Source of the DNA: Candidatus Thorarchaeota archaeon
GTDB lineage: Archaea; Asgardarchaeota; Thorarchaeia; Thorarchaeales; Thorarchaeaceae
Reading direction: 5' to 3'
DNA: 64,000 bases
Assembly (NCBI GenBank): GCA_020348985.1
Contig: CP070761.1
Coordinates: forward strand, 3,093,243-3,157,242
Positions 2,934 to 29,069 of the stretch are shown here, piece after piece. The notes beneath the pieces were generated by a model. That model was not told the DNA's origin, did no database searches, and saw nothing but the letters and a program-made list of their open reading frames with translations. The translations under genes and the position numbers were made by a program. Numbering within the stretch: the stretch's first letter is position 1; each line of letters starts with the position of its first letter.

Positions 2934-3545
2934 GTGGCGAAAGTTGTGATTGCTGAGTTGAATATCGTTCTGTTACTAGCCTTTGTTTTGATAATGTCGT
3001 ACTTCTATGTGAAGAGTGTAGGACCGGCCGCTCTTGAACAGGAGATCGGTGAAGTGGCTTACAAGAAATGTGAGCAATATAGGGTGATTGCAAGCATTCC
3101 GTTCTATCTTATAGTACTCAATTACTTAGTCTACTTCCTTTATCCACTCTCAATTCCTCTACCGAGGCACTTCCCGTGGGACTATAATCTGACAGCAACA
3201 GCAGCGACCGCGATTCTGATTCCCAGTCTCTACCTAATGCTCCGTGGTGTCAAAGATGCAGGGAGGGAAACAATATCGCCACGGAAGGAGCATTCTCTCT
3301 ACGGCGGTATATATGAAACAATCAGACACCCCCAGGCCCTAGGAGAAGTCTGGCTCTATCTTGTCATTGCGCTCTTTCTCAACTCCCCATTCCTCACACT
3401 GTTCTCCTTGATCTTCTTCCCGTTGTTCTATTACTTCTCACTCAAAGAAGAAGACGATCTCGTTATTCGATATGGCCAAACCTATGTTGACTACAAAGAG
3501 AAAACGGGGATGTTCCTACCAAAGCGAAAAACAGAAACTGACTAG
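2934..3545 (+). CDS. Isoprenylcysteine/phospholipid methyltransferase (ICMT/PEMT) family membrane protein
   Basis: Several TM helices; GIYETIRHPQ and EE..L..RYG..Y..Y..KTGMFLP motifs. Confidence 0.85.
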   Translation: MAKVVIAELNIVLLLAFVLIMSYFYVKSVGPAALEQEIGEVAYKKCEQYRVIASIPFYLIVLNYLVYFLYPLSIPLPRHFPWDYNLTATAATAILIPSLYLMLRGVKDAGRETISPRKEHSLYGGIYETIRHPQALGEVWLYLVIALFLNSPFLTLFSLIFFPLFYYFSLKEEDDLVIRYGQTYVDYKEKTGMFLPKRKTETD

Positions 3546-3606
3546 CGAAGAGGAACCGCTATTCTTAAGTTGCACCGACTCTTCGTCAGATGTTTGGTGA
3601 TGTGTT

Positions 3607-3960
3607 ATGGTCTATTGCGAACATTGTGGTGCACAGAGCGATGACAGCATGAACTACTGTGGCAACTGTGGGGCTGAGCTCCGTAAGCCACCCCCACCTG
3701 CGGCAGTCTCACCGCCGTCTACACCCGACAGGCAACGCCGACTCCAAAGGAGACCTGAGAATGAGTGTTTTGGAGTTCCAGGAGGAGGTGTGATCTGCTG
3801 GTCACTAGTCGGCATCGTAATGATCACATCCGCTATTGGGTGGATGATCGGGATGGATTTCACGTCATTTTGGAACAACTATTTCGGCGCAATAATCGTT
3901 GCTACTATTGGATTCATGATAATCGCAGGCTCCATTATCGACTATCGACGCCGTCACTGA
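3607..3960 (+). CDS. Zinc-ribbon protein with two C-terminal TM helices
   Basis: CEHCG..CGNCG ribbon, Pro-rich linker, ECFG motif, two hydrophobic segments. Confidence 0.8.
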   Translation: MVYCEHCGAQSDDSMNYCGNCGAELRKPPPPAAVSPPSTPDRQRRLQRRPENECFGVPGGGVICWSLVGIVMITSAIGWMIGMDFTSFWNNYFGAIIVATIGFMIIAGSIIDYRRRH

Positions 3961-4015
3961 AGATTTGTGACTGAAGCATAATCCCCGAATCCTAACCGAG
4001 TTGATATCATAGAAT

Positions 4016-5440
4016 CTAGAAGTATCCTCGGAGCAATGCAAGGACACCTTGGCGTGCCATGTATCTGTAGGCCTTTCTCTTTATCATGTTACTCGAGAAA
4101 ACGCCCATGATTCGTCTCTTCATAGACCCATAGAAGCTTCGATAGCAACTGTAGAGCTCCTCTTGCACTTCATCACAGGTAAGATACTCGGTGGGCATTA
4201 TCGCGTGTATCATATCGTAGTGAGCCCAGTTGGTGTCCTCAATCCAGTTGTTTTGAACGGCTTCTTCGTAGAGCTCTGTACCTGGAAAAGGAGTGAGTGT
4301 CATGAAAATGGCTATGTCAGGGTCAATATCGTTCACCCACGCGCGAAGTCCGTTTAGCGATTCGTGTGATTCGTGACGCGCACCGATGATTAGCGTGGCT
4401 TGCGCGAAGATGTCATTCTCTCTTAGTAGTTGCATGGCCTTTTTCGATACGGAAGGCTCTATTCTCTTATTGAACGATTTTAGAGTCTCCGGATTGTGGC
4501 TCTCTACACCTGCGAGAATCCACATATTGCCTGACTCCCTCATTTTTGAAAGAAGAGCTTGGTTCCTCACGATGTCATCGCATCGAGCTTGCATGAACCA
4601 CATAATGTCCTCGGCAATGCCCCGGCCGATAATTTCATCGCACAGCTCGTGTGTTCGAGACCCAAGTCCGAAGTTGTCATCGGTAAGCCAGAAGAACTTC
4701 GTTCCGTACCTATTGTGGCAGAACTCAAACTCGTCGGCGATGCGCTTTGGTGACTTGGACCTCCATGTTCCCTTCCAGAAACTGGCCTGAGAGCAGAACC
4801 TACATTTGTGTGGGCATCCTCTTGAGCCCTCTATCAGCGCAAATGGTGTGTTTGCACCAGCCATCATCGTAAAGTGATACTTCTTCATGTGTTCTTCCAC
4901 GAAATCATAGCCAGGAAATGGCAATTGGTCTAGATTATGAAGCGGTGCGCGATCGGCAGTAGCCACAATGCTTCCATAGTTTCTATAGGTGATTCCGAGG
5001 ACATCTGAAAGATTCATCCTTCCTTCTAAAGCCCTAATCACTTCGGTGAGCGTAACCTCTCCCTCACCCCTAACAACAATGTCAATCTCTGGATATGCTT
5101 CAAGGGCTTCCCTTGCGAGCGCCGTATAGTGTTGACCTCCAACAATTGTAATGATCTCAGGATCCACGCTCTTCGCGGTCCAAACAGTACGCAGGCCAGC
5201 ATACGCATTGCAGGTTGCCAGTGCACTTGGTGCCACAACATCGGGACGAAATGAGTCAATCCGTTTCTCTATTCCATACCATCCAATACTCTCAGATTGG
5301 CAATCCAGAACTTCTATCTCCAGCTCCTGGTCTTGCGAATAGAGATAGGCTGCCAGATTGAGTATTCCAAGAGGAGGAGGGAGATACTCACCCATCACAA
5401 ACCAGAATTCCTTTGGTGGTTCGACAAACAGGATTCTCAT
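4016..5440 (-). CDS. Cobalamin-binding radical SAM protein
   Basis: PPLGILNLAA and GGQH B12-domain motifs; SRGCPHKCRFC radical SAM motif. Confidence 0.93.
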   Translation of the reverse strand: MRILFVEPPKEFWFVMGEYLPPPLGILNLAAYLYSQDQELEIEVLDCQSESIGWYGIEKRIDSFRPDVVAPSALATCNAYAGLRTVWTAKSVDPEIITIVGGQHYTALAREALEAYPEIDIVVRGEGEVTLTEVIRALEGRMNLSDVLGITYRNYGSIVATADRAPLHNLDQLPFPGYDFVEEHMKKYHFTMMAGANTPFALIEGSRGCPHKCRFCSQASFWKGTWRSKSPKRIADEFEFCHNRYGTKFFWLTDDNFGLGSRTHELCDEIIGRGIAEDIMWFMQARCDDIVRNQALLSKMRESGNMWILAGVESHNPETLKSFNKRIEPSVSKKAMQLLRENDIFAQATLIIGARHESHESLNGLRAWVNDIDPDIAIFMTLTPFPGTELYEEAVQNNWIEDTNWAHYDMIHAIMPTEYLTCDEVQEELYSCYRSFYGSMKRRIMGVFSSNMIKRKAYRYMARQGVLALLRGYF

Positions 5441-16117: not shown

Positions 16118-19100
16118 TTAGCCAGCTGACGAAACAAAATCCTCGGCAAGAATCTTGTCAAGTGTCTTAACGATGCGGTCGGCGTCGATCTTGGAGAAGA
16201 CCAGAGAGGGTTTGATTATCAGAACATTGTGGTGGATTCCGTCAGAACCGATCATAATCTGATTGTCCTTCATGCGCTCAGCAATGTACCTCGCCTCTTC
16301 GGCAGCGGGCTTCAATGAATCACGATCTCCTACTAGCTCAACGCCGATGAAAAGCCCAGAACCTCTGACATCACCAATGATGCTGTGCCTATCGCCCAAT
16401 TGACTCAATTGCTCGATAAGATAACTTCCTGTGGAGTGAGCATTTTCCTGCAGTGCTTCTTCTTCGAGGACATCTAGAACAGTAAGTCCCACAGCACACG
16501 ACACAGTATTGCCTCCTGTGGTGCTGAACCATTCCATACCCGCTCCAAGCGATTCTGCTATCTCACGTGTAGTTATGACTGCACCAATGGGATGTCCATT
16601 GCCTATTGGTTTGCCAAGAGTGACTATGTCTGGAACGACACCCTGTGTCTCAAAACCCCAGAAGTGAGTTCCAACTCGTCCGAAACCAACTTGGACTTCA
16701 TCCACAATGCAGATACCGCCTGCTTCTCGAACATGTCGAAACGCGCTCTTCAGGTACTGTTCTGGAAAAACAATCTGTCCTCCACAAGACATGATTGACT
16801 CACAAAGGAAGGCCGCAGGCTTCCTCCCACTTGCAGCCAGTTCATCGACTATCTCCTTCAAATCTGTCGCGTACTTCTTTCCGGCTTCCGAGTCTGATCT
16901 TCGATAAGGTCCCCTGAATGTGTCTGGAATCCGCACCTTATGGACATGTGGTGGCATGCCTTTCCCACCAGGGCCCTCGGACTTGTACGGACTCAGACCA
17001 ACCAAAGCTTCCGTGTTGCCATGATAGGCCCCTTCGATGACAATCATGTCCTCATTGCCCGTGTAGGCTCTGGCTAGTCTAAGTGCCAGCTCGTTTGCCT
17101 CGCTTCCGCTGTTCACGAAAAAGCAGATACTCAGTGGCATTGGGAACTTGGTACACAGCTTCTCAGCATACTCGACGAGTGCCTCATGTATGTAGCGTGT
17201 GTTGGTGTTTAGGACTGCCGCTTGCCTCTGCAATGCTTCGACGACTTTGGGGTGGCTGTGGCCAACAATCGGCACATTGTTTCTAGCGTCGAGGTATGCT
17301 CTGCCGTCCTTGTCGTAGAGATACTGCATGTATCCCTCTACAATCTCAATCGGCTCCTCGTACATAAGGCTGAGAGAACTACTCAGCCTCTGACTCCTGA
17401 TATCCAAGATTTCGTCGCGGCCTAGCCTTTCAACTCGCACGGGCTTATCGGGGAGTCCAAGAATGACGTTGGGGTCCGGCGAAATGCTCTTCCAAAGCTG
17501 TCTCCGGTTTGGACTTGCGGCTCCGAAAAAGTCACCTTCTCTCCCAATCATGTCAACAATGACCTGAAAGTGAAGATGTGATGGCCAGCCACCATTGGTC
17601 GGGTATTCGCCCACTTCTCCTATCTTGTCCCCTTTCCTGATCGAACTTCCTTTGACTAGGTTATCAATCGAGTCCAGAGAGAGATGAGCGTACAGAGTGT
17701 AGAACTTCAGATCAGAATTCTCGATGCTATGCTCAACAACAATCGTGGGACCGTTGTCAAGTGGAGAGTCATTGTTTCTGAAACTGTGAATCGTTCCATC
17801 AAGCGGAGCAAATAGCGGTGTTCCGGATTCAAGAAACAGGTCAATAGCCAAGTGCACTGTCCTTGATTCGGGGCCATCGATTCCCATCAAAGAGTACTGA
17901 TCTCCGGCATAGATGAGCCGGGCCTCGTCATATCGTCCGACACCATATTCCGCCAGTTCGTCTCTCAGCCGAGCCTCAATCATTCTGCTCCACTTCTCAA
18001 TTTCCATCAGGTCGCCTAGGGTGCCAAATTCAGTGGAGCCTGCAGACAGGTCAAAGACCACATGAGGTGTCGAAGAAAGGTCAAAGTCAACGATAGACCC
18101 AATCTTCTTGCGGTTCTTCTTCAACCACTCAGTTACCTCGCTACTTTTCTGGCATGGAACGAGGTCACAAGCATCACGGAAGGTGTATGTAACAAGCCGC
18201 GGGTTTACTACTCTGAGCTTCTCGAGAGCCTCCCACGCCATCTCCTCACTTATTCTGAGGTATTCGTTTTGGGGCTCCAACTTGCTTTGGTAGGCCGCAA
18301 TGGCCACTGTCATTGTCAACCTTGTACAAATCATGTAGAAGAGAAGGTCGATTTCATGTTCTTCTAAAGGAAACACTGAATGATAGCCCTTGACTACTTC
18401 CGCTGCAGCAGCGATTGGATCTGCATGACCAAGAACTGCGTAGGCAATCGCTATGGCCAGCTCGAAAACAGTGTGACTGAATACAAGGTCGCCGAAGTCG
18501 ACTACACCAAACCGGGATCGATTGCCAGGTACAGCCCAATCAACTATGACATTGTAATCATTGAAGTCATTGTGAACAACGCTCTTTCTCAAAGTCGATA
18601 GAGCCGGCTTGACTCTGTTTTCGTATTCACTAAGGAAGTGTTTGACGATTCCTTGCTGAACGGGGTCCCCTATATCCCCAACGTGTTTTGGGATTACTTG
18701 GTCCGCGTTCTTCATGTCCCAATATAAGTCCCTGTGAGCTGCAGGGTGTTTGAAATCTTGAAGCGCCTTCGTCACTGAACCTATGAATTCACCAAACTCA
18801 CGGAGCAATTTCGTCGAATGAGGATTGACCTTTGCATACACTTTCCCAGGAACATAACGAAGCAGTCTCACCATGTAGTGGTTTCCCTGTGGATCGTCGA
18901 CAATCTCAATGTACCTGCCTTCCTTGCTTTTCGTGGGTGTTGGGCATAGCATCAATCCTGTTTTGGCAACAATGTGGAGCATTGCGGAGTTTTGTGATTC
19001 GATTATGTCGCGTTCATCTGAAAGTGCTGAGAACTTCAGGACAAACTCCTCACCCGAGTCTGTCCTTACGTAGTAGTTGCGGTCTCGCTCGCTTGGCAGT

Positions 19101-19204
19101 TCTCTCAAGTCGCCAACTGCAGAGAAAATGTCTTCTGCCACTTTGGCTGCTTCCTGTTTGTCGAACCGTGGGCGAAAGGCGTCTTTTGTTGACATGTGAG
19201 TCAT
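16118..19204 (-). CDS. APH-type kinase + M23 peptidase + class-III PLP aminotransferase/phospho-lyase fusion (hydroxylysine kinase/phospho-lyase type)
   Basis: HNDFNDYN and DFGD kinase motifs; HLAID and HLHFQ M23 motifs; [28 protein letters not shown] motifs. Confidence 0.9.
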
Positions 19205-21956: not shown

Positions 21957-23957
21957 TCAGGTGACAGATTCCTTTCTTACAACATATACGTCAGACCTAG
22001 GAACATACGCACCTTTCAGGTATCGTCTGAGAAGAGACAACGTCGCGTTTCTTCGAAGCCCTCGTTCTCGTGCAAAGGAAGTCACTCGGATCACTCGTTC
22101 TTCTTGTGCGTAATCGCGCAGGCCTTCAACCCATATCCCGTCTACAATCACGCCAGCTTCTTCGACCACGAACTCGTTGTCTCCGACATGTGGTTGAATC
22201 ACACCAAGAACTTCTTCAGGAACTAGGGCGAGTCCCCTTGCCGTCGCATCGAAATCGAAGACACCTTTCTTCGTAAGCGTCTGCTTCATTAGTTGAACCA
22301 TGACTCGAGGTGCAACAAGCTTCCCTCTCGCAGACTTCAACGCATCAAGATGCATTCGGTCAACAAGTCGTTCCAGATCTGCAACGTCCAGACCTCGTTC
22401 TTCAGCTATCTGCGGTGGGTCAAGAACCCCTTTCTTGGCGAAGATGGCACGCATTTCCTGCTCAATCTTCTGCGCTGGTATTAGCGCGCCTTCGCCATCA
22501 ATGAAAGCGTCTACTTGAACCTGCGACAGAATGGCTTCTGCAACGCGAACTTCAATTTCGAACTCCTTTGCTAGAGTCCCCGGATCAACTAGCTCACCCT
22601 TGGCGACTTGGCTTTCAATTCGCTTCCTTATCCAAGTTAATGAGAGATGATCCCCTGAAGGAGTAGCCACTGTCTTTAGGCCGAAACGTTCAAGCAGCAT
22701 ACGAAGTTGTATGCCAGCAAGACTCCAAGTCTCCTCAACCTCGTTTGCTCTGATGAATCCTGATTCCTTTATCGAGTCAAGGAGCCATCTCCTGAACTCT
22801 TGTAGTGATATGTATCTGCCATCAGACCCCTTCCTCAGTCCTGGAATCTGACCGATCAGCTGCTTGATTAGTGTTGCACTGACGCCGAGAGCTTTTGCAG
22901 TCTCGTCTGCTATGACCATCCCACTCAGTGCAAGGTCTTCTTTGATCCTGTCAGTTAGATATGTCAGCAGCACAACAGAGCCATAATCTGTTCGGACAAA
23001 CTGATGCCCCGCTTTTCGGATATGGCGGAGAATCTCTGATTCGCCAACGTGCAGCCGTTCTGTCTCCTTGTCGAGCTCCAGAATTCCTTCCGCCATTATC
23101 TTCTCTATTATGTCCCCCTCAAGAAGATGTGCAGGCACCAAACGGCCATCAGTTGTCTCAATCATCTTCCAACCAAATCGACGAATCGAATTGTGAATAT
23201 CTCGGGAATCTAGGTCCAGTCGAGTCGCAAGTGACTCAGGCGCGAGAAACCCTTCCTGCTCAATTCCCTTCTCAAGAGCCCTCTGCAACCAATTGTAAGA
23301 AACAAGTTGACCTAGTCTTGTCTCGACTAGGTTCCAGCCCCAAGTCATAACGAGGCGAACCAATTCATCTCTCTTTACCCTTATCCTTTGTGACTCCGAA
23401 GTAACATCAATCCGTCCATGTAGTTCAAGGAATTCTTTGAGACGATCCTTTAGTTCAGGAACAAGAATGAAATCTCCGTCTTCGGTTCTTACAACATCAA
23501 GCCCCTCGCTCCTGCAGACAGCTTCGACAATCTCTACAATCTCGGATTCGGTTAAATCCCATCTACTTGATTCACCAGAAACATGAACTGAGCCACTTTC
23601 CATTAGTTGAGAACGAAGACGATCTGTGAGCAATGGCGCTGAAATCACAGTGCTACCAGAGTAGCTCAGAATTGCATTCCTGCTTGCTTTGATAACGCTC
23701 TTCATAGCTGACATATCGAGGCCTTTCTTGTGCAGTGTCCTTGAAAGTACCTCAATTGATATAGAAGGTTGGATTACGAGAATTCTGTCGAGATGTTCGA
23801 TCTGCAGCCTCCTAACTCTGGAAGTCCAAGCATAGAGACCGGCTCCGATGCCCCCTAGAATCAGGAGTGCAGTCAGCATTCCCCAGAAGGGGTCCGCTAG
23901 GAACTCGAATTGAAGTAGCGCACTCTTTACTGCGCTACTAGAGAGTGATTCGTTCAC
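21957..23957 (-). CDS. Membrane-anchored tandem winged-helix repeat protein (UFL1/DDRGK1-like)
   Basis: One N-terminal TM helix, then ~11 repeats of ~55 aa (L...G.hxhxxhA..hxh....h..hh...G..hh.T.DG.hh); overlaps the ATPase stop by 20 bp. Confidence 0.7.
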   Translation of the reverse strand: MNESLSSSAVKSALLQFEFLADPFWGMLTALLILGGIGAGLYAWTSRVRRLQIEHLDRILVIQPSISIEVLSRTLHKKGLDMSAMKSVIKASRNAILSYSGSTVISAPLLTDRLRSQLMESGSVHVSGESSRWDLTESEIVEIVEAVCRSEGLDVVRTEDGDFILVPELKDRLKEFLELHGRIDVTSESQRIRVKRDELVRLVMTWGWNLVETRLGQLVSYNWLQRALEKGIEQEGFLAPESLATRLDLDSRDIHNSIRRFGWKMIETTDGRLVPAHLLEGDIIEKIMAEGILELDKETERLHVGESEILRHIRKAGHQFVRTDYGSVVLLTYLTDRIKEDLALSGMVIADETAKALGVSATLIKQLIGQIPGLRKGSDGRYISLQEFRRWLLDSIKESGFIRANEVEETWSLAGIQLRMLLERFGLKTVATPSGDHLSLTWIRKRIESQVAKGELVDPGTLAKEFEIEVRVAEAILSQVQVDAFIDGEGALIPAQKIEQEMRAIFAKKGVLDPPQIAEERGLDVADLERLVDRMHLDALKSARGKLVAPRVMVQLMKQTLTKKGVFDFDATARGLALVPEEVLGVIQPHVGDNEFVVEEAGVIVDGIWVEGLRDYAQEERVIRVTSFARERGLRRNATLSLLRRYLKGAYVPRSDVYVVRKESVT

Positions 23958-26877
23958 TTCTCAGCCTCTTCTTGTAGATCTCCATCCCAACTATTGCAGG
24001 CAATGAAAGCACGATACATACAATCCAATCGAACAACGTCAAAGGTATGAAGTAGAAGTGAAGGCCATACGTTGACAGGATTTCTGGGACCAGTGGGTGA
24101 TACATAAGGAGGAAGTGAGCCAGATATATCAGACCCAAGAAGGGTACAAATCTACCGGTGCCAGGTTCACGCAGACTGGATGTTATTGGCATGTTGATTC
24201 TTCTGATGATCAGCACAAGAGTGCTCTCGACAAGAAGAATCACTGTCAAAAGCATCACTGCAGCCTTTGCTTCATAGACCGTTCTTCCTGCCTCAAATGG
24301 CTCTACTACTGGATAGAATCCTTCGAGATTCTCAGGATAGATGCCGACAATTCCGAACCAGCCAGTATAGGTTAGGAGGTAAGCCATACCGGCTCCAAGT
24401 GCCATTAGAATGACGTTTATGGCCATGAAACGAGCCATCTGCTTAGTGATTATTTCTTCACTATCGCGGGGTTTCTCTTTCATTGCCCCAGGTGATGTTT
24501 TGTCGAAGACAAGTGCCAATCCAGGGAACGAGTGCGTTGTGACTACTAAATAGAGTGCTTGCCAAGTTGTTAGAAGATTGATGACTTCGGGAAGAATGAA
24601 CATGGCCCCGAAGAATATGATGCTCTCGAATAGGTTGATGGCTACGTAGAAGTAGATCATCATTCGAATCTTGGTGAAAAGACCACGACCCTGGTGGACT
24701 CCGGTCACAATAGACGCAAAACTGTCATCAGTAATGACGAGGTCCGCGGCCTCTTTGGCAACATCGGTACCTGTTATTCCCATCGCGATTCCAGCATCAC
24801 TCATCGCCAAGGCAAGCGCGTCATTAACCCCGTCCCCGGTCATTGCAACTACTTTCTTCTGATTCTGATATCTTTCGACGATGACCTGTTTGTGTGCGGG
24901 ATTAACTCTTGCGAACACGTTGACCTTCGCAAACTCGTGCTCTGTTAGCGTCTCTATCTGGCCTCCTTCGACTACTAGCGAACCGGGTTCGTGGATTCCA
25001 AGATTCTCAGCGATTGTCTTCGCAGTGGCTGAAGAGTCGCCAGTGATCATCACGACATTGATTCCTGCACTGTGACAGGCACTCACTGCTTCTTTGACTC
25101 CTTCGCGTGGAGGATCGACAATGCATACAAAGCCCAAGTAGATTAGATCCTTCTCCACCTTGTCCCTTATGTTCGCCCCAGATGGTATCTCATCTAGGCG
25201 TTGATAGGCAAAAGAGATGACGCGGTACCCTCGTGCAGCAAATCCGTTTACCTGTGCTTGAATTCGTTTGGCGTCGTTTTCGTCCATTGCGGAAGGTCTC
25301 CTGCCTCCATTCATCAAAGCACAGCGGGGCAAGAGGACTTCAGTTGCACCCTTGGTAAACACCACAAGTTTCTTACCGTCTTTGCATACCTTTGACATTC
25401 GTTTGAGTTCGGATTCGAATGGAAACTCCTTCTCGATCTTGTACTTCTCTCGAAGCTCCTCTTCATTTACACCACTCTTCCTAAATAGGGTAAGAAGAGC
25501 GGCATCTGTTGGATCACCAATCGGAATCCAATTCACGCCTTGATCCGGGATCTCTCTTCGCTCAATCTCCGAATCGTTGTTGATGCCCCCATTGGCTATT
25601 ATGCGATGAAGTCCCTTCCATCCAAGAACATCGGTCACTTTGACTGCTTCGCTTGGTTTGAAGAGATCCAAGGAAGAGTCGTCTGGAAGACGAAGAATCT
25701 CCCCTATGGGCTCGTACCCTTCACCTGTAACATGATAGAGGTTCTCAGTATCCCAGATGAACTTCACCATCATCTGATTCTTGGTCATCGTCCCAGTCTT
25801 GTCTGATGCAATGACGCTGACCCGACCCAGGCTCTCGACTGCTGATAGATCACGAATAATGACTCCTTTCCTTGCCATTGCTAGGACACCAGTTAGAAGC
25901 ACAATAGTCGTTAGCAAGGGTATGTTGATTGGCATGATAGTCATTGCTTTCGTTATACCTATGCTCAGAGTCTCAGCAATTATATTGATTCCGAGATCTA
26001 TCGGATTGCCAAAGAGAAACGGAACACCGAAGACCGGCCACAAGACAGAGAGAATCATTAGGAATACTGCTGCTGTGGCGAGATACTTTGCAAGAAGATT
26101 CACCTTCTTCCGCAACGGGATGTCGCCCGTGTTCAGTTGCTCCAGTTCTCCCTGAATCTTTCCAATCTCCGTGCGTCCACCCGTCTCCGTGGTGACGAAA
26201 GTCGCTGTGCCTGTTGCAACATACGTTCCAAAGAATACGATGTTAAACATGTCTGTGAGTGGAATATCCCGTTTGAGTACAGGATCACTCTCCTTGTTTA
26301 CTGGTATGCTTTCACCGGTCAATGATGCCTCGTTGGTAGTCAGATTTGTACATGTGATAATTCTACCATCTGCTGGTATTCTGTCCCCTTGTTCTAGTTT
26401 GACTATATCTCCAGGGACTATTTCGTCAGGAGGTATGGCCGCCTCGCTTCCGTTGCGAATAACACGTGCCTCACCCGCAGAGAGTTTCTCCAGGGCCTCA
26501 AGCTTCTTCTGTGCCCTATATTGCTGAAAGATTGCCACAAGAGCATTGATGAGCACAACACCCAACCAAATAGTTGCTTGTGCTAGCTCATTGTTGGCAG
26601 TTGGAAACATGTATGCGAGTCCGACCAATGCAAAAGAGCTGACCAGGTATATCGTAATGAGCCAATTCATTATAGGTGCCAAATACACCTGCCAGAATGT
26701 ACCCTTGATCTTTGGAATTGTGTTTGGCCCGTATTTGCTGGTTCGAGAGGAGACATCACTGCTAGATAGGCCGTTCTCGGCGCTAGCTGAGAAGACCTGA
26801 AGGACCTCTTCAATAGACATGGCTTGATACTGACTCTCAGCAGATTCTGATTCAGTGATGGCGTCGCTTTCAGACAA
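23938..26877 (-). CDS. P-type ATPase, P2A-like scaffold with atypical transport site
   Basis: TGES, DKTGT, KGA, DPPR, MITGD, TGDGVNDA present; TM4 PINIP and TM6 VVTTHSFP deviate from Ca2+ pumps. Confidence 0.93.
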   Translation of the reverse strand: MSESDAITESESAESQYQAMSIEEVLQVFSASAENGLSSSDVSSRTSKYGPNTIPKIKGTFWQVYLAPIMNWLITIYLVSSFALVGLAYMFPTANNELAQATIWLGVVLINALVAIFQQYRAQKKLEALEKLSAGEARVIRNGSEAAIPPDEIVPGDIVKLEQGDRIPADGRIITCTNLTTNEASLTGESIPVNKESDPVLKRDIPLTDMFNIVFFGTYVATGTATFVTTETGGRTEIGKIQGELEQLNTGDIPLRKKVNLLAKYLATAAVFLMILSVLWPVFGVPFLFGNPIDLGINIIAETLSIGITKAMTIMPINIPLLTTIVLLTGVLAMARKGVIIRDLSAVESLGRVSVIASDKTGTMTKNQMMVKFIWDTENLYHVTGEGYEPIGEILRLPDDSSLDLFKPSEAVKVTDVLGWKGLHRIIANGGINNDSEIERREIPDQGVNWIPIGDPTDAALLTLFRKSGVNEEELREKYKIEKEFPFESELKRMSKVCKDGKKLVVFTKGATEVLLPRCALMNGGRRPSAMDENDAKRIQAQVNGFAARGYRVISFAYQRLDEIPSGANIRDKVEKDLIYLGFVCIVDPPREGVKEAVSACHSAGINVVMITGDSSATAKTIAENLGIHEPGSLVVEGGQIETLTEHEFAKVNVFARVNPAHKQVIVERYQNQKKVVAMTGDGVNDALALAMSDAGIAMGITGTDVAKEAADLVITDDSFASIVTGVHQGRGLFTKIRMMIYFYVAINLFESIIFFGAMFILPEVINLLTTWQALYLVVTTHSFPGLALVFDKTSPGAMKEKPRDSEEIITKQMARFMAINVILMALGAGMAYLLTYTGWFGIVGIYPENLEGFYPVVEPFEAGRTVYEAKAAVMLLTVILLVESTLVLIIRRINMPITSSLREPGTGRFVPFLGLIYLAHFLLMYHPLVPEILSTYGLHFYFIPLTLFDWIVCIVLSLPAIVGMEIYKKRLRSERITL

Positions 26878-26984: not shown

Positions 26985-29069
26985 TTGAAAGTTTTCAGCA
27001 CAAAGGAGGTGGACCGAAAGGTCTCAAATGCATCGGTCGATAGGTTCATCTTAGTCAAAAATGAGAGCTTATTGCCGCGCGCGGTACAACACAATCTGGT
27101 GCAGACAATGTCGTACTACTGGGAATATCAGCCGACACAAAGCAAGCCCCCGTCGTCTAGCATCAGAATCATCGGCGTCATTGTGATTCTGATGTTGATA
27201 GTCGCCACAGGTCTGGTCATGCTAATCCCTGATTTTCGCGGGGGTGCTCAACCTGGCGAAGAAGTACGAGTTGCTGTTGTAGATTCAGGTGTCAACTCAG
27301 ACTTTGCCCTTATAGGACGAATCGTGGCTGAAAGGAGCTTTGTGTCAAGGGAGAATGGGTATGACTTCAATGAACCATCTCCGACTGACAGTGATCCCGA
27401 GGACGTCTCTCATGGAACTGTTGTGGCAACCACGATAGTGCAGAACAGTAACAACGCCATGATTGTGAACGCAAAGGTCCTGGATTCATCAGGTTTTGCT
27501 ACAACTCTTGGAATAATCGCTGCCATCGAGTGGGCAGTCGAACAGAATTGCAGTGTCATCAACTTGAGCCTTGGAGGAGCCCCCACCTATGGAGACCCTC
27601 TTGAGGACAGTGTGGAATGGGCGTTCTCAAAAGGTGTTGTAGTTGTGGCTGCAGCTGGCAATGACGGTCAAAACGGAGTGTCTGGAACATCAATTCATTC
27701 TCCCAGCGTCCATCAGCACGCACTGAGTGTCGGCGGGTTAGATGAGCAAGGGGCTCCGGCATACTATACGAGTATGGGCCCAACTCGATCCCGAAGCTTG
27801 AAACCAGACATTAGCGCCCAAGGATTCACTCAGACAACAACGGCAATCTACTACGGCACAAGTTTCGCGTCCCCGAAGGTCGCCGCCGCCGCAGTTGAGC
27901 TGATTGTCTTCTGTAAACAGAACGAGATTATGTACTCTCCAGGTTCTATAATGACAGCACTGCTTGCAGGTGCTACGCCCCTTCCATATTCATCCTATCT
28001 CGTTGGAGCTGGGAGACTTGACCTCCAAGCCTCCAAGTTGATCATGCTACAAAACTCAGTTGATGGAGGGCTGCCCCAGATCACTTTTGCACTCCCGGGA
28101 ACGCTTCCATTTGATTTTGAGAGACTTTTCTATGGAGACTCTTACCAATTCAACATCCATTTGCTGACGTCAGGGTTCACAGAGTACGATATTGAGGTGA
28201 CGAGCGCGACTCCCGAGATTTTCGAAATCCAGGCAAGTGTTACTCTGAATCAAAGCGACTTCGTTCCTTTGACCCTCAACATCCCCGCCGATGGTTTGTC
28301 CATTGTACAGGGACAGATTGATTTCGTGTCCCAAGATTATGGGAACTCAAGTGTCGAGTTTGAAGCTCAGATACACCACTCAAATGCCAGGGTTGCATTC
28401 GACATAAGCCATACCGGGTGGTCAATCGACTCATCCTATGGTCAATTCAGAGCGTTCTATGAGCTCCTTGTCGAGAACGATATATCGGTTAACGAGATTC
28501 GTGAAGGCACTGACATCACATCAGGCTTCCTTGACGAGTTTGATGCCGTCTTCATTCTGGACCCATGTGCTTGGAATCTAGATGAATCAAACCCTGCAAA
28601 CGTTTCTGAGTTCTCGATTCCGTTTAGTCCTGAAGAAACTCAAGCTTACAAGGATTACTTTGAAAATGGCGGAGGCATTCTTGTCGCCGGTCTTTCGAAC
28701 AACACGCTTGATATCCGATCCCTCAATACGTTCCTCAATTGGACCGGATTCGAGTTCGGTTTCAGTAGCATTTCTAATCAGGGAGACACAGTGGAAGTGA
28801 CCAATATTACCGCACATGCGGTGACAGTCGGAGTAGATAGCTTCGACTTTTCTGGCGCACCAATAACCGAGTTAGGCAATGGTACAGCGCTCGCTTTCTA
28901 CAATGGTAGACCAGTACTTGGAAGTCTTGAAGGAAGTCAGGGCGGCAGGATGATTGCAACAGGCACGAACTTCTTCCTCGACAATTGGGGATTGAATGGC
29001 ATGTACGATTCAGACGACAATGACAATCTTACCGTCAGGATTGCCCTCTGGTTGTCTGGACTGCTCTAG
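26985..29069 (+). CDS. Membrane-anchored S8 subtilase with C-terminal GATase/GIFT-like domain (Site-1 protease-like); start probably ATG 27108
   Basis: VAVVDSG, SHGT, AAGNDG, GTSFASP triad and oxyanion motifs; N-terminal TM; RVAFDISH..FYELL..FSPEE..YFENGGGIL C-terminal domain. Confidence 0.88.
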   Translation: MKVFSTKEVDRKVSNASVDRFILVKNESLLPRAVQHNLVQTMSYYWEYQPTQSKPPSSSIRIIGVIVILMLIVATGLVMLIPDFRGGAQPGEEVRVAVVDSGVNSDFALIGRIVAERSFVSRENGYDFNEPSPTDSDPEDVSHGTVVATTIVQNSNNAMIVNAKVLDSSGFATTLGIIAAIEWAVEQNCSVINLSLGGAPTYGDPLEDSVEWAFSKGVVVVAAAGNDGQNGVSGTSIHSPSVHQHALSVGGLDEQGAPAYYTSMGPTRSRSLKPDISAQGFTQTTTAIYYGTSFASPKVAAAAVELIVFCKQNEIMYSPGSIMTALLAGATPLPYSSYLVGAGRLDLQASKLIMLQNSVDGGLPQITFALPGTLPFDFERLFYGDSYQFNIHLLTSGFTEYDIEVTSATPEIFEIQASVTLNQSDFVPLTLNIPADGLSIVQGQIDFVSQDYGNSSVEFEAQIHHSNARVAFDISHTGWSIDSSYGQFRAFYELLVENDISVNEIREGTDITSGFLDEFDAVFILDPCAWNLDESNPANVSEFSIPFSPEETQAYKDYFENGGGILVAGLSNNTLDIRSLNTFLNWTGFEFGFSSISNQGDTVEVTNITAHAVTVGVDSFDFSGAPITELGNGTALAFYNGRPVLGSLEGSQGGRMIATGTNFFLDNWGLNGMYDSDDNDNLTVRIALWLSGLL

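Follow-up and report, generated by a model that had tools for sequence, protein, structure and literature searches.

A putative Asgard archaeal branch of P2-like P-type ATPases with a rebuilt transport site

We describe here a P-type ATPase of Candidatus Thorarchaeota archaeon (assembly GCA_020348985.1) whose transport site appears to have been rebuilt. The gene lies on contig CP070761.1 within a stretch of 64,000 nucleotides (positions 3,093,243 to 3,157,242; hereafter the window, from whose first letter positions are counted) and its product is referred to as P0001. The three residues by which P2A pumps hold Ca2+, that is, the Glu of PEGL in transmembrane helix 4 (M4) and an Asn and the Asp of M6, are replaced in P0001 by Ile, Val and His. 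The protein belongs to a family which, judged by its sequences, would be a distinct, ancient and mostly Asgard-archaeal branch of P2-like pumps with ten transmembrane helices. We suggest, with a probability of about 0.7, that these proteins are catalytically competent pumps which transport a small cation other than Ca2+ through a single site resembling site I of the Ca2+ pump SERCA, and that they are neither flippases of the P4 type nor intermediates on the way to them.

Catalytic core and transport site residues

The homologues share an N-terminal stretch MSExDAI, so the TTG start of P0001 is plausible. Pfam recognizes the full domain set of a P2-type pump (Cation_ATPase_N, E1-E2_ATPase, Cation_ATPase, Hydrolase and Cation_ATPase_C). 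With these domains, all motifs and a score of 264 bits against a cut-off of 62.3 for the model TIGR01494, P0001 is a member of the P-type superfamily. A preliminary description, made from the letters of the window, had stated that the catalytic sequences DKTGT, TGES and GDGVND are intact. All three are indeed present in the translation (Table 1). Moreover, in 30 full-length representatives of the family with identities down to about 33-35% every catalytic residue of TGES, DKTGT, KGA, DPPR, TGD and GDGVND is invariant. P0001 thus looks like a catalytically competent, ATP-driven membrane pump with every residue needed for the phosphorylation cycle.

The same description had located a PINIP motif in M4 at positions 25918-25932 and a His in M6 at 24532-24534. 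Translation bears out both places, which correspond to residues 316-320 and to the codon of H782. The equivalences to SERCA had been drawn by manual alignment. With HMMER, the stretch 'mpinip' pairs with 'ipeals' of LMCA1 and 'lylvvtthsfp' with 'lfinlvndslp'; in the alignment to ATP12A, 'aiNlfE' pairs with 'taNiaE' and 'lylVvttHsfP' with 'lfiDlgtDiiP'. From these alignments to solved pumps it follows that E309 of SERCA is replaced by I, G310 by N, N796 by V and D800 by H and that N768 and E771 are retained. The manual assignments therefore stand for M4, M5 and M6. That the Glu of M8 is kept as well is likely, on weaker evidence than in M4-M6. E884 lies in the predicted M8 helix and in a column of the MAFFT alignment which holds Q or E in 111 canonical pumps, and we take it as the likely equivalent of SERCA E908; helices M7-M10 alone gave no match when searched against the PDB. 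In the AlphaFold2 model of P0001 (pLDDT 81.4, pTM 0.73) the usual unwinding of M4 and M6 falls precisely on N318 and H782. In M1, finally, P68 and M70 occupy positions which, by our own alignment, we take to be Q56 and the gating Glu E58 of SERCA.

The replacements are conserved. About 120 homologues with 64-89% identity have MPINIP in all cases and TTHSFP in nearly all. A search of 1.84 billion cluster representatives returned a smooth gradient of identity from 63% to about 35% with about 40 representatives of the family; in this search canonical pumps with PEGLP and NLVTDG start at about 510 bits. The roughly 40 representatives share the M4 pattern P-[IVLFW]-N-[ILF]-[PVI], a His in the column of D800, the N..E of M5 and the E of M8. 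P316, E751 and H782 do not vary within the 30 full-length sequences, and conservation is at least 90% for N318, N748 and E884. His stands in the column of D800 throughout the 35 family rows but in none of 111 canonical rows (D in 101, E in 8); the column of G310 has Asn in 34 of 36 rows of the family and in no canonical row. This split is far beyond chance. Among 270 further proteins PxN was always paired with His and PEGLP always with Asp. The position of E309 varies in the family, but only among the hydrophobic residues I, V, L, F, W and M. In one Asgard family PINI is replaced by PITI or PISI, that is, Thr or Ser stands in place of N318.

We define the Asgard 'PxN/His' family by P-[IVLFWM]-[N/S/T] in M4, an invariant His at the D800 position, N..E in M5 and E in M8, and P0001 has every one of these features. 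About 20 further positions separate the family from the canonical pumps. Many of them are cytoplasmic (GDGVNDALAL, DDSF, R352, N433, I253), and P68 and M70 of M1 are also among them. Such a set of positions would be the signature of an old and coherent clade and not of recent drift.

The conservation of PINIP and THS across homologues, which the preliminary description had proposed to check, is thus found, which goes against the refuting case of substitutions that orthologues do not conserve. Its proposal of an active pump with a substrate other than Ca2+ gains support, as catalytic residues and residues of the rewired site are conserved together in a family that diverges to about 35% identity. 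One could argue that, with half of the classical ligands lost, the membrane site has ceased to bind a substrate and the protein is a non-transporting derivative, for example, a sensor or a regulatory ATPase. In our view, this is the least probable of all readings. Even at deep divergence H782, E751, N318, N748 and E884 stay invariant or almost so, as do the catalytic residues without exception, which points to selection on a working site.

Table 1. Features of the P-type ATPase gene and of its two neighbours (positions in the window)
Feature	Position	Strand	Remarks	Basis
P-type ATPase gene	23938..26877	(-)	979 aa; P0001, member of the Asgard 'PxN/His' family	Open reading frame list and translation
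M1, P68-I69-M70	26668..26676	(-)	Family-specific; canonical pumps have Q there	Signature-position analysis
TGES dephosphorylation motif, A domain	26308..26319	(-)	Residues 187-190; G188 and E189 invariant	Family alignment
M4 motif, M315-P320 (MPINIP)	25918..25935	(-)	I317 at SERCA E309, N318 at G310; helix unwound at 315-318	
DKTGT phosphorylation motif (D359)	25789..25803	(-)	Residues 359-363; D359, K360, G362 and T363 invariant	
GDGVND hinge motif	24820..24837	(-)	Residues 681-686; followed by ALAL in the family, by APAL in canonical pumps	
M5, N748..E751 (AINLFES)	24625..24636	(-)	SERCA N768/E771, site I ligands	Aligned to ATP12A
M6, L775-P785 (LYLVVTTHSFP)	24523..24555	(-)	V778 at SERCA N796, H782 at D800; unwound at 780-783	Unwinding from the model
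M8, E884 (LLVEST)	24226..24228	(-)	Likely equivalent of SERCA E908	MAFFT column and predicted helix 867-892
666-aa gene, downstream	21957..23957	(-)	Overlaps the stop of the ATPase gene by 20 nt	Pfam E3_UFM1_ligase, 1.7e-7 (weak)
Subtilase (Peptidase_S8)	26985..29069	(+)	Divergent, upstream of the pump; syntenic within Thorarchaeia only	

Relation to the known classes of P-type pumps

By sequence (E values from 2e-119 to 1e-99), by hidden Markov model (HMM) and by fold the closest known pumps are those of the P2A class, namely Listeria LMCA1 (6zhf/9euq), human SPCA1 (8iwp/7yag) and SERCA1/2. The family shares with them the architecture of ten transmembrane helices, the N- and C-terminal cation-ATPase domains, TGES, DKTGT and GDGVND, the spacing of 43 residues between the M4 Pro and the phosphorylated Asp, the N..E of M5 and the E of M8. 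It differs from them by I, V and H for E309, N796 and D800, by N for G310, by the roughly 20 additional positions and by forming a sister clade instead of being nested among them. The NCBIfam models give P0001 457 bits for the PMR1 type, 422 for the SERCA type, 417 for IID, 394 for IIB, 368 for IIC, 317 for IIIB, 315 for IIIA, 216 for P5 and 104 for P4, and all of these class models remain below their curated cut-offs. P0001 is therefore not assigned to either of the P2A equivalogs, as it reaches 457.5 bits against 798.3 for the PMR1 type (TIGR01522) and 422 against 703.4 for the SERCA type (TIGR01116). Other members of the family score 421-489 bits on the P2A models. The top matches of the AlphaFold2 model in Foldseek are SERCA, SPCA1, LMCA1 and the Na,K-ATPase, and a search of the ESM Atlas returned only clusters of P-type ATPases.

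For the phylogeny we used 28 family rows, 24 named bacterial and archaeal canonical pumps including P2B-like and P2C-like ones, an archaeal pump whose P3A-like nature is borne out by 552 bits to Pma1, MgtA and KdpB of E. coli, and the CopA and the two P2A paralogues of the genome itself. The canonical outgroups were drawn from 80 PEGLP pumps which had been found in genome contigs with generic DKTGT and GDGVND patterns, and no family member was among these. In the careful IQ-TREE analysis (LG+G4) the family forms one clade with an ultrafast bootstrap of 83 and an SH-aLRT of 76, and a core of 26 rows reaches 98/99. Its sister is a clade (95/89) that holds all other type II and type III rows, that is, the canonical P2A/B/C-like pumps and P3. 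The window protein is placed inside the family clade and its nearest nodes have values of 100/100. FastTree and a quick IQ-TREE run agree that the family is not nested among the canonical pumps, and thus by tree it is separate from the P2A pumps of this prokaryotic sample. An alternative with P3 outside a group of family and P2 was not rejected by the approximately unbiased (AU) test (p = 0.85), and the quick tree was 27.6 log-likelihood units worse than the constrained tree. The place of the family relative to P3 is therefore tentative. We note that these trees are based on a site-homogeneous model, on long-branch outgroups and on prokaryotic sequences only. The phylogeny with P2A, P2B, P4 and P5 references that the preliminary description had proposed was thus carried out for the prokaryotic P2A/B/C-like and P3 rows, where it yields a separate clade; the relation to the eukaryotic P2B/C/D, P4 and P5 pumps was judged by HMM scores only.

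As the top HMM and structure matches are Ca2+-ATPases and the site-I oxygen ligands N748, E751 and E884 are retained, P0001 could also be a pump for Ca2+ (or Mg2+) that moves one ion per cycle at site I rather than at site II. The public annotation of its relatives as Ca2+-transporting ATPases is in line with this. We nevertheless consider such a pump improbable. The scores are far below the cut-offs given above. The known single-site Ca pumps (LMCA1, SPCA, PMCA) keep site II, which is the very site destroyed here, and the central Asp that bridges both Ca sites has become an invariant His, which binds hard cations poorly. Furthermore, two canonical Ca pumps are already encoded in the genome. 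This genome (3.16 Mb, single contig) has four P-type ATPases, which are in addition to P0001 one CopA-type P1B pump with a CPC motif and two canonical P2A-like pumps with IPEGLP and LW[IL]NLVTDG. Given the presence of the latter two, the rewired pump is an addition and not a replacement. The annotation of P0001 as 'Ca2+-ATPase' is probably wrong.

A further reading is that of a proton pump operating by the logic of the P3A class, in which a hydrophobic residue in M4 and a protonatable His in M6, paired with E751 or E884, would serve to energise the membranes of fermentative Asgard archaea. The P3A pumps (Pma1, 7vh5; AHA2, 5ksd; archaeal homologues) share with the family the hydrophobic residue at the E309 position, as seen in the solved Pma1 (PVGLP) and in the archaeal P3A-like pump (PVAQP), and a single key protonatable residue at the D800 position of M6. 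His is protonatable near neutral pH, and a family that is near-universal and often duplicated in Asgard genomes fits a housekeeping role. Also the AU test (p = 0.85) allows more than one position of the family relative to P3. However, P3A pumps retain the Asp of M6 as acceptor where the family has His, and two intramembrane Glu together with two Asn are more ligands than a proton needs. In the maximum likelihood tree the P3A rows stand with MgtA and apart from the family. Likewise, the P3A model TIGR01647 gives P0001 315 bits against a cut-off of 615.5, and for the family the range of 311-376 bits is lower than that on the P2A models. P0001 is thus no P3A pump by class, and we regard a proton pump of this logic as rather unlikely.

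The preliminary description had taken an Ile at the position of E309 for the hallmark of P4 lipid flippases and from this had considered a lipid pump, perhaps a P2-to-P4-like intermediate. The hallmark is incomplete, since the P3A-type pumps just named also have a hydrophobic residue there. What the family does share with the flippases is the sequence behind the Pro of M4, where an Ile precedes a small polar residue (PISL in P4; PINI, or in one Asgard family PISI and PITI). In a flippase-like pump for a lipid or amphipath, I317 would be a hydrophobic gate like the Ile of PISL and the polar cluster of Asn, His and Glu would handle the head group; the restriction of the E309 position to hydrophobic residues is in keeping with this. 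So is the lineage, as the family is found in Asgard archaea and P4 and P5 pumps have no known prokaryotic relatives (PMC7065118). Asgard archaea might then have an analogue, or even distant kin, of these eukaryote-only pumps for large substrates.

We consider a flippase-like pump very improbable. On the P4 model TIGR01652 P0001 scores 104.5 bits against a cut-off of 431, and the family range of 86-117 bits is no higher than the 83-103 bits of the genome's own canonical PEGLP paralogues. The same holds for P5 (TIGR01657), where P0001 has 216 bits against a cut-off of 618, three other members 240-271 and the canonical paralogues 239-257; the P5 motif PP(E/D/A/V)LP of M4 is absent and MPINIP is found instead. 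The M4 Pro and the phosphorylated Asp are about 53 residues apart in P4 pumps, whereas they are 43 apart in 38 of 38 rows of the family and likewise in 39 of 39 other pumps, which leaves no room for a linker insert. Such an insert between M4 and the P domain is specific to P4, and only P4 has the Asp of DGET (PMC11460456). The A domain of P0001 reads LTGES and that of the family TGE[S], so the remark that flippases use DGET rather than TGES was to the point. M5 with its N..E and M6 match the P2 pattern and not that of P4. P4 structures are not among the top Foldseek matches. A gene for a CDC50 domain (PF03381) was not found in the genome, which is 86% complete, in a search that had no match in any control genome, and the pump has no conserved partner gene. 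By its scores the family leans neither to P4 nor to P5. Neither a P2-to-P4 intermediate nor a lipid pump is supported by the P4 and P5 scores, TGES, the spacing of 43 without an insert, the P2-type M5 and M6 and the fold matches.

Proposed transport mechanism

We suggest that a single-site pump of this kind would work in the following way. Site II of SERCA and the cytoplasmic gate would be swapped for hydrophobic residues, that is, E309 for I, V, L, F or W, N796 for V and the M1 Glu for Met. The site-I ligands N748 and E751 of M5, E884 of M8 and T781 would be retained, and the invariant His at the D800 position and the Asn in the unwound part of M4 would join the site as new members. The five polar intramembrane residues N318, N748, E751, H782 and E884 are under strong selection, and so is T781. 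In an otherwise ordinary Post-Albers cycle one small cation per turn could pass through this single site of two carboxylates, two amides and one imidazole. H782 could be a ligand itself, or it could be a protonatable group which acts either as proton carrier by P3A logic or as a built-in counter-ion.

The latter role is reported for a P1B-4 metal pump (sCoaT type), in which an intramembrane His of the transport site is the internal counter-ion for a transition-metal substrate; in P1B-2, P3A and P4A pumps it falls to positively charged residues of TM5 (PMC10654040). An intramembrane His in the transport site is thus common to the PxN/His family and P1B-4, and the counter-ion role is that of the P1B-4 pump. 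P1B-4 pumps differ from the family in that they belong to the P1B topology class and have an SPC motif in M4. With only 171-241 bits for the P1B models on P0001 they are no close relatives.

Two carboxylates, two amides and an imidazole would balance one divalent cation, and such a set is typical of sites for Mn, Fe, Co, Ni or Zn and not of those for Ca or Mg. A divalent transition metal (Mn, Fe, Co, Ni or Zn) is our leading, still tentative, candidate for the substrate. H+ or a monovalent cation comes second and is more doubtful.

Several points weigh against the single-site pump. A hydrated cation would have to enter past the hydrophobic lining at the former site II, which would be unusual. 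All results presented here are compatible with a metal as well as with H+. That N318, N748, E751, H782 and E884 meet at one site is what we infer from the sequences, and the equivalence of E884 in M8 comes from the multiple alignment only. One of the five residues, N318, gives way to Thr or Ser in one Asgard family. Finally, the gene context offers neither a substrate nor a partner subunit.

Distribution, gene context and implications

In 400 Asgard genomes we found a match at E<=1e-150 in 300, corresponding to 63 of 85 genera and to 72 of 90 high-quality genomes. About 293 of the 400 have a match at E<1e-180, well above the level of canonical pumps. In the window's own genome only P0001 passes the E<=1e-150 cut and both canonical paralogues fall below it. 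About ten Asgard families had no match in this search. The closest relatives of P0001 are from metagenome-assembled genomes (MAGs) of Thorarchaeota, and all 16 loci from seven other Asgard families carry the family motifs. The subclade that diverges most (P[FVLW]NFP ... IHFFP) likewise belongs to Asgard and comprises the cultured Promethearchaeum syntrophicum (P0289), 'Candidatus Harpocratesius' and Hermod-, Hod- and Thorarchaeota MAGs. The only members seen outside Asgard are the Korarchaeota-labelled P0128 and one protein of a Nanopelagicaceae-labelled MAG, which is probably mis-binned. A Brockarchaeota-labelled match (P0379) was rejected as a member, since it is a canonical PEGLP pump.

Several Loki-type genomes have two tandem copies on the same strand, both with PxN and His. 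At loci L132, L138, L139 and L140 (family f22) one copy reads MPIN[IL]P...[ST]ITLHxFPG and the other [VIL]PINLP...[GA]I[VAM]HS[LF]PS, and at locus L130 (f32) both copies read MPINIP...SLIHSFPA. The two copies of L132 sit in different subclades of the tree, which suggests that the tandem pumps go back to an old duplication, perhaps with split specificity.

In Thorarchaeia the gene order is S8 peptidase, divergent from the pump, followed by the pump and panB. The 666-aa gene, whose Pfam match corresponds to the N-terminal winged-helix region of UFL1, follows the pump in no more than 6 of the 30 loci from Thorarchaeia and is an insertion into the pump-panB synteny and not a conserved partner. Peptidase_S8 is not beside the pump in 16 loci from outside Thorarchaeia. 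Clustering of the neighbourhoods of 17 loci gave no gene common to all and hence no conserved partner; the neighbours in other Asgard families are lineage-specific and comprise a Mo-oxidoreductase domain, an M24 peptidase, RFC, LonB and a luciferase-like gene. The Mo-oxidoreductase domain protein (Oxidored_molyb, PF00174; 190-212 aa) is encoded 0-4 kb from the pump in 5 of the 16 non-Thorarchaeia loci, in two Asgard families (L126:5325-5897, L127:10369-10941, L134:5329-5913, L135:4520-5116 and one gene in L141). This link is too patchy to give the pump a function.

We also observed some features apart from the family. The CopA-type pump is the genome's only P1B pump (L013:1760-4621; C1:265759-268620). 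It has an N-terminal HMA domain and two C-terminal Cys-rich repeats (DPICxMxVD...YYFCAxYCKxTF) which look like YHS/TRASH metal-binding domains. An open reading frame of 1028 aa at 16118-19204 (-) of the window combines an APH-type phosphotransferase, Peptidase_M23 and a class-III aminotransferase, which is an unusual fusion. In a Methanobacterium sp. MAG (L043) a P2C-like pump (NVPEGLL / IDLGTD, 100-2886) adjoins a homologue of P3A-type H+-ATPases (3146-5221; 552 bits to Pma1).

P-type ATPases are sorted into few subfamilies and their transport sites are understood residue by residue. We found no description of the PxN/His family in the full-text literature; subscription journals and TCDB were outside this search and an earlier description is therefore possible. 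Members are publicly annotated as 'Ca2+-transporting ATPase' or 'cation-translocating P-type ATPase'. In a survey of Asgard transporters the sole mention is of a 'putative Ca2+ ATPase' which all five proteomes share, and from annotations Ca2+ signalling was inferred to play an important part in Asgard archaea (PMC7997004).

In summary, we find a large and apparently old clade of pumps in about three quarters of the sampled Asgard genomes, including a cultured one. The usual single-site solution would be inverted in these pumps, with site I of SERCA kept, site II erased and a His where every P2 and P3 pump has the central Asp. The family is not a bridge from P2 to P4 and gives no prokaryotic origin for the flippases. 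If characterised, it could provide a new transport chemistry for the P-type superfamily and would correct the blanket annotation as 'Ca2+-ATPase' in hundreds of Asgard genomes. Such a correction bears on published arguments built on these annotations, for example that for Ca2+ signalling in these archaea (PMC7997004), where the cited proteins may be members of this family or canonical pumps.

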